The position numbers and the translations under genes were made by a program. From an uncultured Actinomycetota bacterium (lineage in GTDB: Bacteria; Actinomycetota; Actinomycetes; JADGOV01), in contig CAWFCZ010000018.1 of the NCBI GenBank assembly GCA_963814355.1, positions 201,692 to 265,691 of the forward strand: 64,000 nucleotides of DNA, in the 5' to 3' direction. Shown here in pieces: positions 21,481 to 39,554 of this stretch (position 1 is its first letter; each line of letters begins with the position of its first letter). Under the pieces are notes generated by a model. It searched no databases. It was not told the origin of the DNA and saw only the letters and a list, made by a program, of their open reading frames with translations.

Positions 21481-21966
21481 TTGGGACCCGTGCATCCCCG
21501 GGCTGAGCACGTCCAGTGGGTGCTCGCCGCGGCCGGTGCGGCCGGAACGGTGGTCGAAACCCAGGACACCGCCCGGACCGCGACGGAGGCGGCCGCCACG
21601 ATCGGCTGCGCCGTGGGGGCGATCGTCAAGTCGCTGGTCTTCACCGCCGGCGGCGAGCCGGTCCTGGTCCTGCTCGGTGGCGCGGACCGGGTCGACACCG
21701 CCGCGCTGGCCGCCCACCTCGGGGCGCCGGTACGCCAGGCCAGCCCGGCCGTGGTACGCGAGGCGACCGGCTTCGCGATCGGCGGGGTCGCGCCGGTCGG
21801 CCACCCCGGATCGCTGCCCACTCTGATCGATCCGGGGCTGGGCGAGTACGAGCAGGTCTGGGCCGCCGCCGGTACGCCGAACGCCGTCTTCCCGACCACG
21901 TACGCCGAACTGCTCCGGCTCACCGCGGGGACGCCGGTCGAGGTGGCCGCCCGGCCGGTGCGGTGA
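21481..21966 (+). CDS. YbaK/ProX-type aminoacyl-tRNA deacylase domain protein
   Basis: AIVKSLVF, GFAIGGVAPVGH and VWAAAGTPNAVF motifs typical of the YbaK/EbsC editing domain. Confidence 0.65.
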   Translation: MGPVHPRAEHVQWVLAAAGAAGTVVETQDTARTATEAAATIGCAVGAIVKSLVFTAGGEPVLVLLGGADRVDTAALAAHLGAPVRQASPAVVREATGFAIGGVAPVGHPGSLPTLIDPGLGEYEQVWAAAGTPNAVFPTTYAELLRLTAGTPVEVAARPVR

Positions 21967-22673
21967 TCGTCGCGCTGCACGTCTGGCAGGTGCCGGCGCG
22001 CGCGATCCCGGCCGCGCTGGGACGGGTGGCCCGTGATCACCTGACCCTGCGCCGTACCCCCGACCTGCGCTTCGGCAAGGTGCTCGGCACCGGCGCCGGC
22101 GCGACGTTCACCCCGACCGACGCCACCCCGCGGCGCTGGGCGCTGCTCACGGTGTGGGACTGCGTCACCGATGCGGAGCAATTCGAGCACTCCGGGACCG
22201 TCCGGCGTTGGAATGGCGCAGCGCACGAGCGCTGGCGGGTGCTGCTGGAGCCGCTCTCCGCCCGCGGCCGCTGGTCGGATCGGGCGCCCTTCGGCGATCC
22301 GGCACCGCGCCGCTACGACGGCCCGGTCGCCGCGCTGACCCGGGCCCGGATCGCGCCGCGCAAGCTGGCCACGTTCTGGCGGGCGGTACCTCCGGTCTCC
22401 GCCGACCTGCACCGCTGTGCCGGCCTGCTCCTCGCCCTCGGTATCGGTGAGGCTCCGGTCGGACTGCAGGGCACGTTCAGCCTGTGGCGCACCGGTGCGG
22501 ACCTCACCGCGTTCGCCCACCGCCGAGGGCCGCACGTCGAGGCGATCCGGCGCACCGGCACCGAGCACTGGTACGCCGAGGAGCTCTTCGCCCGGTTCGC
22601 CGTGGTGTCCTGCGCGGGGGAGGTCGACGGCCGGGATCCGCTGACCGGGGCGGCCCGTACCGCCCAGCCTTAG
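21963..22673 (+). CDS. Hypothetical protein (~236 aa), translationally coupled (GTGA) to the YbaK-like gene; possibly a CrtA-like (spheroidene-monooxygenase-like) carotenoid-tailoring protein
   Basis: GTG start overlapping the upstream stop, clean GC3 bias, directly upstream of the CrtD-like/cruF/cruC block. The functional guess is weak. Confidence 0.35.
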   Translation: MIVALHVWQVPARAIPAALGRVARDHLTLRRTPDLRFGKVLGTGAGATFTPTDATPRRWALLTVWDCVTDAEQFEHSGTVRRWNGAAHERWRVLLEPLSARGRWSDRAPFGDPAPRRYDGPVAALTRARIAPRKLATFWRAVPPVSADLHRCAGLLLALGIGEAPVGLQGTFSLWRTGADLTAFAHRRGPHVEAIRRTGTEHWYAEELFARFAVVSCAGEVDGRDPLTGAARTAQP

Positions 22674-22683
22674 ACTGCCCCAG

Positions 22684-38024: not shown

Positions 38025-38984
38025 GTGAGTAACCGGGAACTGGACGCGGCCGGGATCGTCGACCCGGTCCTGCGGGCGTCGTATGAGTACTGCCGCCGGC
38101 TGAACTCCGCGCACGGCAAGACGTACTACCTGGCCACCCTGTTGCTCCCACCGGAGAAGCGGCCCTACGTCCATGCGCTCTACGGCTTCGCCCGCTACGC
38201 CGACGAGATCGTCGACGACCTCGGCTCCACCCTCTCGCCGGCGGAGAAGGCGGCGGCCCTGCAGCAGTGGGGCGGACGCTTCCTGCGCGGGGAGTGCGAC
38301 GAGGCGACGCTACCGGCGGTGCACGACACCATCCGTCGCTGGGACATCCCACGGGGACACTTCACCGCGTTCCTGGACTCGATGCGAATGGACCTCACCG
38401 TCTCCTCCTACGCCACCTTCGATGACCTGATGGGCTACGTGCACGGCTCCGCGGCAGTGATCGGGTTGCAGATGGTGCCGATCCTGGAACCGCGCACCGA
38501 CGCGGCGTACGCCTATGCCCGCGACCTCGGCGTCGGCTTCCAGCTGGCGAACTTCCTGCGCGACGTCGGCGAGGATCTGCAACGCGGGCGGGTGTACCTG
38601 CCGGTGGAGAGCCTCGAGCTCTTCGGCGTCACGGTGCAGGATCTGGCGGCCGGAGTGGTCGACGGGCGGATCCGGCGGCTGCTGGCCTTCGAGATCGCCC
38701 GGACCAGGGAATTCCTGCGCGCCGCCGCGCCCGGGGTACGGCTGCTGCACCCGACCAGCCGGGACTGCATCGCCACCGCGCTGCGGCTCTACGGCGGCAT
38801 CCTCGACGCGATCGAGGCGGCGGACTACCAGGTGCTGGACCGCCGGGTTCGGGTCGGCCCGCTCACCCGGACCCGGGTCGCGCTACCGGCGCTGGGCCGG
38901 GCCCGCTCCGCCCGCCGGCGTCATCCGACACCTCTCGCCGCAGCCGGCGACCCCACCACACCCACCAGCTCAGGGTCTGGGTGA
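38025..38984 (+). CDS. crtB: Phytoene synthase CrtB
   Basis: YCRRLNSAHGKTYYLATLLLP, ALYGFARYADEIVDD (first Asp-rich motif), FQLANFLRDVGEDLQRGRVYLP (second). Confidence 0.85.
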   Translation: MSNRELDAAGIVDPVLRASYEYCRRLNSAHGKTYYLATLLLPPEKRPYVHALYGFARYADEIVDDLGSTLSPAEKAAALQQWGGRFLRGECDEATLPAVHDTIRRWDIPRGHFTAFLDSMRMDLTVSSYATFDDLMGYVHGSAAVIGLQMVPILEPRTDAAYAYARDLGVGFQLANFLRDVGEDLQRGRVYLPVESLELFGVTVQDLAAGVVDGRIRRLLAFEIARTREFLRAAAPGVRLLHPTSRDCIATALRLYGGILDAIEAADYQVLDRRVRVGPLTRTRVALPALGRARSARRRHPTPLAAAGDPTTPTSSGSG

Positions 38985-39231
38985 CCAGCGCGAAGCCGAA
39001 GAGCAGATCCTCCACCGGCGCGCAGGCGATCCGGAAGCCGGTGATCACCGCCGGGTTGTAGGTCACCACGTCCCGGCAGGTGAGGACGCCGTTCACCACG
39101 AGTTGGAAGAACACCACGATCGCGTACGCCGTCCAGAACACCCGCCGCCGCAGCAGCCGGGTCCGCAGCACGAGCAGGTCGAGCCCCACAGTAGCGGCCA
39201 CTCCGACCAGCGCCAGGGCGGTGTAACTCAC
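38863..39231 (-). CDS. Lycopene cyclase domain protein (CrtYd-type heterodimeric cyclase subunit)
   Basis: GTG at 39231 overlaps the crtYc stop. Hydrophobic ~100-aa cyclase domain (FWTAYAIVVFFQLVVNGVLT...PVEDLLFGFALV). C-terminal tail overlaps the crtB 3' end. Confidence 0.6.
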   Translation of the reverse strand: MSYTALALVGVAATVGLDLLVLRTRLLRRRVFWTAYAIVVFFQLVVNGVLTCRDVVTYNPAVITGFRIACAPVEDLLFGFALVTQTLSWWVWWGRRLRREVSDDAGGRSGPGPAPVARPGSG

Positions 39232-39554
39232 TCCTCCCCCGTCGGCCAGCCACGCACTGCCCGGACCGCCTCGAAGGCCAGGATCGCGCAGATCGGGATC
39301 ACGACGAAGAACAGCAACTCCTCCAGCGGCAGGTGCCCCGGCAGTTCCACCCCGGTCGTCTGGCGGGGGTCGTACCGCCAGTGGTGCCGGGCGATCGCAT
39401 ACAGATCCCAGCCGGTGAACACGACCACGACCGGAGGCAGGGTGAGCAGCAGGCGGCGCCACCGGGAGAAGACCTGGGTATGCAGCAGCAGTTCAAGCGG
39501 GAGGGCGGTACCGGCGAGCGCGAGCCCGAGCACCCCGAGGTAGACCAGCCTCAC
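39228..39554 (-). CDS. Lycopene cyclase domain protein (CrtYc-type subunit)
   Basis: 108 aa, three TM helices, lycopene cyclase domain pattern ([15 protein letters not shown]...[10 protein letters not shown]). Start overlaps the thiE stop. Confidence 0.65.

Follow-up and report, generated by a model that had tools for sequence, protein, structure and literature searches.

A candidate pathway to a monocyclic keto-carotenoid glycoside interleaved with the metF-idsA locus of an uncultured actinobacterium

Introduction

The pigments known from actinobacteria include phleixanthophyll, 4-ketophleixanthophyll and related 4-keto glucosides. Mycobacterium phlei makes 4-ketophleixanthophyll, Nocardia makes esters of phleixanthophyll and Rhodococcus rhodochrous acyl-glucosides of 4-keto-γ-carotene; sioxanthin corresponds to phleixanthophyll with a φ-ring (PMC5884252). 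Salinixanthin is the acylated (6-O-acyl ester) form of 4-ketophleixanthophyll (PMC5822342), and phleixanthophyll in Actinoplanes missouriensis appears as an unpublished remark in PMC11425705. Here we analyse a carotenoid gene set at positions 21963-39554 of a 64-kb stretch of DNA from an uncultured actinobacterium (hereafter the window, whose numbering is used for all coordinates). To our knowledge, the genes for phleixanthophyll and 4-ketophleixanthophyll have not been assigned experimentally and only the compounds are described.

On the genetic side, the neighbourhoods for lycopene, the lycopene cyclase and 'actinoxanthin' in acI actinobacteria were described by Dwulit-Smith et al. 2018 (10.1101/367102), who found that acI CrtE, CrtB and CrtI make lycopene in E. 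coli and named one gene acI-crtA, the 'actinoxanthin' product itself being only predicted. In Rhodococcus erythropolis, crtO encodes a β-carotene ketolase through which the organism natively makes 4-keto-γ-carotene (10.1101/2024.02.21.581484), and this CrtO groups with that of Synechocystis (Klassen 2010). The same paper describes CrtA homologues as ketolases in purple bacteria and hydroxylases in Bacteroidetes, and it groups CrtU with the CrtP/CrtQ desaturases, the homology of CrtU to the CrtI family being only limited (Klassen 2010). In Deinococcus, CrtO is DR_0093 and CruF is DR_0091 (PMC6300522).

Results

Gene content and proposed pathway

The locus appears to hold all the genes needed to turn prenyl diphosphates into a monocyclic keto-carotenoid glycoside, 4-ketophleixanthophyll (deacyl-salinixanthin), a reading to which we give a probability of roughly 0.55. 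IdsA/CrtE would supply geranylgeranyl diphosphate (GGPP), from which CrtB would form phytoene and CrtI lycopene, and CrtYc/CrtYd would cyclise one end of it, yielding γ-carotene. On the ψ-end left open, CruF would hydrate the chain (1'-OH), the CrtD-like enzyme would desaturate it at 3',4', the CrtA-like oxygenase would add the 2'-OH, and the family 2 glycosyltransferase (GT2) would attach a sugar, most likely at 1'-O, while the CrtO orthologue would place the 4-keto group on the ring end. Phleixanthophyll and 4-keto-γ-carotene would be likely intermediates or co-products. We infer all of the catalytic steps, the regiochemistry of glycosylation and monocyclisation as opposed to bicyclisation from the sequence.

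Genes were called by a frame plot of G+C content at third codon positions (GC3; the window has ~72% G+C), families were assigned by NCBIfam and Pfam scans, and the junctions were inspected base by base. For comparison, 80 related loci (designated by L-numbers) were gathered by scanning a genome collection with the window CrtD-like protein, and all window proteins were compared with them by tblastn; the 68 loci used for the counts of cruF and GT2 are those with enough upstream sequence, and 11 related loci were annotated open reading frame (ORF) by ORF. The pathway genes, which run from the start of the crtA-like gene (21963) to that of crtYc (39554), are as follows (aa, amino acids).

21963-22673, plus strand: crtA-like carotenoid oxygenase, 236 aa, predicted 2'-hydroxylase
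22684-24225, plus strand: crtO (CrtI-family A), 513 aa, orthologue of the β-ring 4-ketolase
24222-24986, plus strand: cruF, putative carotenoid 1',2'-hydratase, 254 aa, membrane protein
24971-26140, plus strand: putative GT2 carotenoid glycosyltransferase (CruC/CruG-like), up to 389 aa
30504-31979, plus strand: crtD-like (CrtI-family B), 491 aa, predicted 1'-hydroxy-carotenoid 3',4'-desaturase
34289-35428, plus strand: idsA/crtE, polyprenyl (GGPP) synthase, up to 379 aa, divergent from metF
35448-36938, plus strand: crtI, phytoene desaturase, 496 aa
38025-38984, plus strand: crtB, phytoene synthase, 319 aa
38863-39189, minus strand: crtYd, lycopene β-cyclase subunit, 108 aa
39228-39554, minus strand: crtYc, lycopene β-cyclase subunit, 108 aa

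All the genes named in an earlier note on this DNA were recovered in their places by GC3 gene calling and the NCBIfam and Pfam scans. That note had described a near-complete set for a glycosylated, possibly aryl carotenoid embedded in the conserved metF-idsA locus; both the near-complete set, for a glycosylated and probably monocyclic carotenoid (crtE/idsA, crtB, crtI, crtYc/Yd, cruF, GT2, CrtD-like and CrtA-like), and its embedding hold. A single label was wrong: the gene at 22684-24225, which had been called CrtU-like, is the CrtO orthologue.

Every pathway ORF was intact and full length, with a GC3 of 0.88-0.95, as in expressed genes, and aligned with its family from end to end. The junctions within ybaK-crtA-crtO-cruF-GT2 measured -4, +10, -4 and -16 nt, the crtA-like start overlapping the ybaK-like stop and the cruF start overlapping the crtO stop by 4 nt each; that of idsA-crtI measured +19 nt, and those of thiE-crtYc-crtYd -4 and +38 nt. 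These short or overlapping junctions imply translational coupling within ybaK-crtA-crtO-cruF-GT2 and indicate three tightly coupled units, from which expression is predicted, with crtD and crtB parted from their partners by lineage-specific insertions. An Rfam scan found no RNA elements within 21963-39554. The gene that precedes the crtA-like gene encodes a YbaK/aminoacyl-tRNA-deacylase-like protein (21490-21966, plus strand); 9 of 59 loci, Micromonospora among them, carry it at this place as well.

Gene 22684-24225 is an orthologue of the CrtO ketolase

Judged by full-length homology and by its chromosomal position, which is the same as that of Rhodococcus crtO, the gene at 22684-24225 is an orthologue of the CrtO β-ring 4-ketolase. 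Its protein was matched best and end to end by the NCBIfam CrtO model NF045689 (220 bits), with crtI_fam, CrtD and CrtH at 100, 72 and 57 bits, respectively; the Pfam Amino_oxidase match was confined to the N-terminal FAD motif, and identity to the window CrtI and CrtD-like proteins was 25-26%. The names of its close homologues are all generic in the databases, and the link to CrtO was built stepwise, from the window to Tsukamurella (tblastn, plasmid records) and from there to Rhodococcus. The Tsukamurella homologue (51% identity) lies in the order GNAT, crtO-like, LppM, metF, idsA, beside the dcw cluster, and as a query it retrieved Rhodococcus orthologues of 62-66% identity, with protein P0444 in the R. 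erythropolis/qingshengii cluster. The window protein aligned over its full length with P0444, 'crtO [Rhodococcus erythropolis]' (UniRef100_Q5IKE4), at 54% identity over 515 aa (496 bits). In Rhodococcus, crtO is placed in the order mraZ, DUF3040, GNAT, crtO, LppM, metF (minus strand), idsA, crtI, mptA/B, crtB.

The NF045689 cut-off is 1000 bits, and the R. erythropolis CrtO, which shows the same family ranking as the window protein, scores 272 bits (Deinococcus, 293-298). Since the Rhodococcus CrtO itself reaches only 272 bits, the sub-cut-off score of the window protein is uninformative; the cut-off captures apparently cyanobacterial-type close relatives. In agreement with the assignment, the Deinococcus CrtO-like protein is the reciprocal best match of the window protein (43% identity, 349-357 bits versus at most 64 bits for other paralogues), a link that consists of the orthologous group and the gene context; the homologue in Deinococcus deserti (43%) heads a cluster of CrtY-CruF, acyltransferase, GT2, CrtD-like, crtI and crtB. 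There are no CrtO or CrtU structures in the PDB, and an AlphaFold2 model was only moderate (pLDDT 65, pTM 0.62).

CrtU and the aryl carotenoid

The aryl, sioxanthin-type product proposed earlier was not borne out, as CrtU has no homologue in the window and its would-be representative is the CrtO orthologue. From the sioxanthin enzyme repertoire, the ψ-end part (CruF, CrtD, GT2 and CrtA-like) is present, and the φ-ring synthase CrtU is missing from the window. Neither extra CrtI paralogue matched PDS or ZDS models beyond the N-terminal FAD motif, and no PDS/ZDS-like protein was found in a Pfam survey of the whole window.

Queries with CrtI-family proteins revealed no further CrtI-family paralogues near crtD in the 80 loci, and a CrtU-like gene was therefore found only by later ORF clustering, which uncovered a probable CrtU of 513 aa in 8 Pseudonocardiales loci (full-length Amino_oxidase 145 bits, HpnE 134, ZDS 59, PDS 38). 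No homologue of this protein was present within the 64-kb window (best E 0.3 over 22 aa), and the loci with a crtO-like gene (11/80) and those with a CrtU-like gene (8/80) do not overlap. The Pseudonocardiales loci, which combine cruF-GT2-crtD with a probable CrtU, and not the window, are the genuine candidates for sioxanthin-like aryl carotenoid glycosides. The probable CrtU gene lies at 786-2327 (minus strand) in L010, with equivalents in L021, L026, L042, L051, L056, L067 and L077, and its neighbours encode crtYc/Yd, a CrtT-like methyltransferase, a Rieske-DUF5914 protein, a CarH/LitR-like MerR regulator and a BrkB-like membrane protein.

The ψ-end module

The four genes predicted to act on the ψ-end (crtA-like, cruF, GT2 and crtD-like) are orthologous to those of the Micromonospora locus L080, with 45-60% identity and in the same order. 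The crtA-like protein matched the NCBIfam spheroidene monooxygenase model NF045923 (E 1e-51, 175.6 bits, cut-off 300), aligned over 18-225 of 226, and occupies the position of acI-crtA. CruF matched Pfam PF04240 Caroten_synth with 125.3 bits (cut-off 25) and TIGR03460 CruF with 117.7 bits (cut-off 154.7). The GT2 protein, whose start codon is ambiguous (24971 or 25166), matched Pfam Glycos_transf_2 and, both below cut-off, the NCBIfam CruG (96.8 bits) and HpnB (120.7 bits) models; it is 60% identical to its Micromonospora orthologue and 43% identical to the GT2 of the Deinococcus operons, where GT2-crtD coupling also occurs.

The protein encoded at 30504-31979 scored 352.5 bits on crtI_fam (cut-off 238) and, over its full length, 342 bits on CrtD NF045637 (cut-off 580), compared with 521 and 259 bits for the window CrtI on the same two models, so that it is the closer of the two to the CrtD model. 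On homology and context, CrtD appears to be the best assignment for this CrtD-like gene. The Rhodococcus CrtO matched no crtD-like protein in the acI-type, Micromonospora, Streptomyces or Amycolatopsis loci; this places the acI-type 'CrtD' outside the CrtO clade, which answers the question of CrtD or CrtO that the acI authors had raised and makes it less likely that this gene by itself leads to a 4-keto carotenoid of the antenna type.

Two genes upstream of the operon, a WS/DGAT gene (19704-21254, plus strand) exceeded the cut-off of TIGR02946 (408 bits) and carries the HHxxxDG motif. It was considered as the missing sugar acyltransferase and rejected, being syntenic in none of the 11 annotated related loci, and is probably unrelated to the pathway.

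The lycopene half

The idsA product gave polyprenyl synthase matches (e.g. NF042416, 335.7 bits) and is 63-70% identical to its Nanopelagicales orthologues, while CrtI scored 520.6 bits on TIGR02734 (cut-off 238). CrtB belongs to the phytoene/squalene synthase family, with all scores below cut-offs (CrtB 195, HpnD 191 bits), and is 59-78% identical to orthologues located beside crtI and crtYcd, including the acI crtB. The cyclase subunits are adjacent ORFs of 108 aa that exceed the TIGR03462 cut-off of 39.4 bits (CrtYd 57.2, CrtYc 74.4). Overall, the acI orthologues of the window lycopene enzymes are 59-73% identical to them.

The 3' ends of crtYd and crtB converge and overlap by 122 nt (38863-38984), as compared with 110 nt in L001 and 75-102 nt in Nanopelagicales, a convergent overlap that is conserved across distant lineages. 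At the other end, a 4-nt overlap joins the stop of the thiamine-phosphate synthase gene thiE (39551-40204, minus strand) to the start of crtYc, so that the two cyclase genes seem to share a transcript with thiE and possibly also with the upstream Rv2175c-like gene.

Conservation of the locus and its backbone

The nearest relative is a Frankiaceae metagenome-assembled genome (MAG), with 79-85% amino-acid identity and 79% for the CrtD-like protein, so that the window does not stem from Micromonosporaceae; look-ups of window proteins for exact matches returned nothing. A recurrent order was observed among the related loci: ybaK, crtA-like, in some cases the extra CrtI-family gene, cruF, GT2, crtD-like, CDP-alcohol phosphatidyltransferase, metF and idsA, followed past idsA by crtI, crtB, crtYd, crtYc, thiE and Rv2175c-like. 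It was seen in Frankiales-type and 'Mycobacteriales' MAGs, Kineosporiaceae, Nanopelagicales (acI), a Micrococcales MAG and Micromonospora, and partly in Rhodococcus. CruF and GT2 genes accompany crtD in 49/68 loci, GT2 directly adjoining it in 43/68; metF/idsA lie downstream of crtD in 30-33/65, crtI follows idsA in 27/58 as well as in Rhodococcus, and crtA-like orthologues stand upstream of cruF in 24/59. The complete set occurs within ±10 kb in 10 of the 80 loci, and 10 of the 11 loci with a crtO-like gene also carry the crtA-like gene. Taken together, these counts confirm an arrangement far beyond chance.

The flanking backbone consists of ftsI, rsmH, mraZ, DUF3040 and dnaE2 on one side and, past the locus, thiE, Rv2175c-like, thiO/S/G, a PASTA kinase and DAHP synthase genes; this conserved actinobacterial backbone is also present in Tsukamurella and Rhodococcus. 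The crt genes are threaded through these housekeeping genes, and in the window a few lineage-specific insertions come on top. The interleaved architecture spans Rhodococcus to Nanopelagicales, and between Rhodococcus and the window crtO, metF and idsA are each 52% identical and crtI 46%. As the crt and housekeeping genes are about equally diverged, any insertion of crtI/crtB behind idsA must be ancient. The interleaving is in keeping with the earlier suggestion of a housekeeping idsA behind which crtI/crtB came to be inserted; loss in some lineages (Tsukamurella, and Micromonospora at this locus) explains the data equally well.

In 19 loci of Geodermatophilaceae (Blastococcus, Modestobacter, Geodermatophilus and Klenkia), a CrtD-like orthologue of 60-65% identity stands alone, none of the other locus genes being found within ±10 kb of it (e.g. 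L006, L017, L020, L022, L023, L025 and L028). A further observation concerns L082 (NZ_LR134460.1, 360 kb), recorded as 'plasmid 18' of Tsukamurella tyrosinosolvens: it carries murE, a penicillin-binding protein gene, rsmH, mraZ, metF and idsA, and from this core dcw-region content is probably a mislabelled chromosome fragment.

Insertions and the CDP-alcohol phosphatidyltransferase

The remaining genes between the bounds of the locus are the following (SAM, S-adenosylmethionine; CDP, cytidine diphosphate).

26248-27015, plus strand: PIG-L
27023-27655, plus strand: SAM methyltransferase
27750-28190, minus strand: SRPBCC/AHSA1
28270-28860, plus strand: MarR
28949-30460, minus strand: glpK
31989-32741, minus strand: CDP-alcohol phosphatidyltransferase paralogue, 250 aa
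32769-33176, minus strand: F420-type reductase (TIGR00026, 40.8 bits), not part of the pathway
33230-34144, minus strand: metF (TIGR00676, 339.8 bits, above cut-off), backbone, not part of the pathway
37036-37890, minus strand: DUF559/AbiEi-domain gene (Pfam DUF559, AbiEi_4, AbiEi_1), not part of the pathway

PIG-L, the methyltransferase, SRPBCC, MarR, glpK, the F420 reductase and DUF559 are lineage-specific insertions and not pathway genes. The first five form a block of 4.3 kb (26248-30460) that parts GT2 from crtD and has a counterpart (pgi, PIG-L, glpK) only in the nearest relative, L001/L086. The F420 reductase gene was absent from all 80 loci, and the MarR, SRPBCC and methyltransferase genes from the related loci, in line with the earlier view that the carotenoid genes are interleaved with unrelated ones. 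That the set is 'dispersed' was an overstatement: GT2 adjoins crtD in most relatives, and the window only has the 4.3-kb insertion there. Between crtI and crtB, relatives carry an MptA/MptB-like mannosyltransferase gene (NF038066, 200 bits; it also matches TIGR03459, short name 'crt_membr'), and no mptA-like gene was found in the whole window; its slot is held by the DUF559/AbiEi gene, which is shared only with L004 (56% identity). The GNAT gene that follows the crtA-like gene in relatives is likewise absent from the window.

PIG-L and the SAM methyltransferase lie downstream of GT2 on the same strand, with gaps of 107 and 7 nt; both were considered as enzymes that might tailor the sugar, and rejected. 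A role for PIG-L in the pathway was suggested by the PIG-L gene that ends the Deinococcus CrtO-CruF-acyltransferase-GT2-CrtD operon, and the window gene was considered as a deacetylase of an N-acetylglucosamine glycoside acting after GT2. This was rejected, as carotenoid genes are missing around its close relatives in 39 of 40 contexts from metagenomes. The Deinococcus operon PIG-L is BshB1, above the NCBIfam cut-off, and is 31% identical to the window PIG-L over 143 aa. This gene for the bacillithiol deacetylase BshB1 (10727-11473 in L083-L085) overlaps the end of the carotenoid operon by 4 nt, an odd coupling of thiol and carotenoid genes.

The CDP-alcohol phosphatidyltransferase matched Pfam PF01066 and, below cut-off, the NCBIfam archaetidylinositol-phosphate synthase model (88.9 bits). 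Its gene is adjacent and convergent to crtD in 23 of the 54 loci with a GT2 module (among them L007, L010, L021, L026, L051, L056, L067, L068, L076 and L077); 14 of these are without metF, and the loci without it include some of Pseudonocardiales, Streptomyces and Kineococcus. It is essentially absent from the lone-crtD loci of Geodermatophilaceae. This pattern might reflect an unrecognised member of the module, which would decorate either the carotenoid or its sugar with a phospho-alcohol or phosphatidyl head group, or would make a dedicated lipid partner; we regard such a role as a long shot. We know of no published pathway that gives this enzyme a carotenoid role.

Other features of the window

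Outside the locus, a TPP (thiamine pyrophosphate) riboswitch (44996-45107, plus strand; RF00059, 57.2 bits, above the gathering threshold) directly precedes thiO (45101-46243), behind which come thiS and thiG. Next to the locus, a damage-tolerance cassette at 13149-19443 (minus strand) encodes a Y-family polymerase with IMS domains (13149-14306), a DnaE2-like polymerase (14529-18335), recognised by its translation alone, and a DUF6504 protein (18964-19443). Two antisense ORFs, 47432-48055 (plus strand) and 47344-48039 (minus strand), overlap with high GC3 and an atypical first-position GC of 0.57-0.60, the plus-strand ORF having no Pfam match. The gene at 51401-52204 (plus strand) encodes a membrane-anchored Rieske [2Fe-2S] protein with an N-terminal DUF2231 and is unrelated to the Pseudonocardiales Rieske-DUF5914 gene.

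Discussion

Several points weigh against 4-ketophleixanthophyll as the product. The CrtA-like, CruF (TIGR model), GT2, CrtD, CrtB and CrtO scores all lie below the NCBIfam equivalog cut-offs; the best carotenoid-specific match of the GT2 is CruG, a 2'-O-glycosyltransferase, which makes the position of the sugar uncertain, its identity being no more readable from sequence; and pairwise BLAST with Deinococcus proteins leaves the crtD-like protein not cleanly separated from CrtI. The CrtO-like family is large, with thousands of homologues, some of them away from carotenoid genes, and function may have drifted within it. UniRef100_Q5IKE4, whose source name is 'crtO', is presumably the enzyme that Tao and Cheng characterised in 2004. 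Finally, CrtYc/Yd may form two-ringed β-carotene instead of γ-carotene, and a CrtU, an acyltransferase or a hydroxylase encoded outside the visible 64 kb could alter the product.

If the cyclase formed β-carotene, the locus could serve two product lines, one from β-carotene through CrtO to echinenone and canthaxanthin, the other through cruF, crtD, crtA and GT2 to acyclic hydroxy- or glycosyl-carotenoids. Product specificity of the cyclase is not readable from sequence, the acI CrtYc/Yd has been proposed to yield both γ- and β-carotene (10.1101/367102), and the Rhodococcus CrtO converts supplied β-carotene to canthaxanthin (10.1101/2024.02.21.581484). We nevertheless consider such a division unlikely: the known actinobacterial products (phleixanthophyll, 4-ketophleixanthophyll, 4-keto-γ-carotene glucoside esters and sioxanthin) are monocyclic (PMC5884252), R. 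erythropolis natively uses its CrtO on the way to 4-keto-γ-carotene, and the 4-nt overlap of crtO and cruF suggests, through translational coupling, a single pathway. It is distinctly unlikely that the scaffold is the same and its oxygenation different, with the CrtA-like protein as a 2'-ketolase, the CrtO-like protein acting on the ψ-end, or the sugar at 2'-O as in myxol glycosides. Both activities are known among CrtA homologues, the GT2 matches CruG best among specific models, the CrtA-like and CrtD-like proteins fall short of their equivalog cut-offs, and those who described the acI genes were undecided between CrtD and CrtO (10.1101/367102); set against this are the strong and positional orthology of the window CrtO to Rhodococcus crtO, and the link of the Micromonospora/Salinispora-type ψ-end orthologues to a 1'-O-glucoside with 2'-OH, as in the sioxanthin structure.

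A φ-ring glycoside of the sioxanthin type, aromatised by an extra CrtI-family enzyme or by a CrtU elsewhere in the genome, would be in keeping with the orthology of the ψ-end module to that of Micromonospora L080 (45-64% identity), which likewise stands beside the CDP-alcohol phosphatidyltransferase, metF and idsA, with the match of L080 to Salinispora terp1 in size and gene count (10.4 kb), and with the pairing of the module and a probable CrtU in Pseudonocardiales. In the work of Richter (2015), the Salinispora sioxanthin pathway is said to be split over four genomic regions, which makes a distant crtU conceivable. This product is very doubtful all the same: neither window paralogue is CrtU-like, CrtU being kin to CrtP/CrtQ and not to CrtI; the probable CrtU has no match in the window; the one candidate is a CrtO orthologue, and ketolase and φ-ring synthase would be rivals for one β-ring; and the two kinds of locus are mutually exclusive among the 80. 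That the set is partly decayed or silent, the organism making simple carotenoids or none, might be read from the 4.3-kb insertion between GT2 and crtD, the DUF559 element between crtI and crtB and the missing GNAT and mptA-like genes of relatives. This seems highly improbable for ORFs that are intact and full length, with GC3 values of 0.88-0.95 and end-to-end family alignments, and in L001 and L004, the nearest relatives, these insertions likewise stand beside intact genes. The pathway to 4-ketophleixanthophyll is thus the reading that we prefer.

This analysis replaces an aromatic, sioxanthin-like prediction with a testable one, 4-ketophleixanthophyll/deacyl-salinixanthin, and provides candidate genes for phleixanthophyll-type pigments, which have been known chemically since the 1960s. 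In a wider sense, one conserved module for ψ-end glycosylation is joined to differing ring enzymes according to actinobacterial lineage, namely CrtO in the Frankiales-type clade, a probable CrtU in Pseudonocardiales and neither in acI/Kineosporiaceae, a pattern that would serve as a simple genomic rule for predicting the pigment class. The value of the analysis is corrective and organisational, and specialists in carotenoids will find none of it surprising.

Comparison with known systems

The locus is real but typical for its clade, and its layout is already in the literature. As in acI, crtA, cruF, GT2 (cruG) and crtD are co-directional upstream of crtE-crtI-crtB, crtYd/crtYc converge on crtB with a crtB/crtYd 3' overlap, and the orthologues are 47-73% identical. 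The window differs from acI in having crtO between crtA and cruF and insertions at GT2/crtD and crtI/crtB; in addition, an acyltransferase heads the acI modifying operon, whereas in the window a ybaK-like gene precedes crtA. No opsin, blh or PF01553-type acyltransferase was found in the 64-kb window.

With the sioxanthin systems of Salinispora and Micromonospora, the window shares the chemistry and predicted enzymes for a ψ-end 1'-O-glucoside with 2'-OH and 3',4'-didehydro groups, and the gene order of Micromonospora L080 (ybaK, crtA-like, GNAT, cruF, GT2, crtD, CDP-alcohol phosphatidyltransferase, metF, idsA) is the same as that in the window. Richter et al. 2015 reportedly distinguished a pigment-modifying cluster, terp1, from a precursor cluster, terp2, in Salinispora, and from its size and gene count we infer that L080 is the equivalent of the 'pigment-modifying' terp1. 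In contrast, the aromatic φ-ring of sioxanthin needs CrtU, which is absent from the window, where CrtO is found instead, and crtI, crtB and crtYcd share the locus in the window but form a distant cluster in the sioxanthin producers.

Rhodococcus erythropolis/qingshengii has the dcw cluster, DUF3040, crtO, metF (minus strand), idsA, crtI and crtB interleaved alike, with CrtO 52-54% identical; it lacks the crtA-like, cruF, GT2 and crtD genes at this locus, and the window lacks LppM, GNAT and mptA. The Deinococcus operon, with CrtO-like, CruF, PF01553 acyltransferase, GT2 and CrtD-like proteins, represents the same repertoire, but the window has no acyltransferase, the identities are 31-44%, and the Deinococcus cyclase is a CrtY-CruF fusion or CrtLm (PMC6300522). 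Phleixanthophyll and 4-ketophleixanthophyll of Mycobacterium phlei and Nocardia have exactly the structures that the window enzyme set predicts, those pigments being known as compounds and the window from its genes alone. Taken together, these comparisons indicate that the parts of the window are known ones, in a combination that is widespread within its clade.

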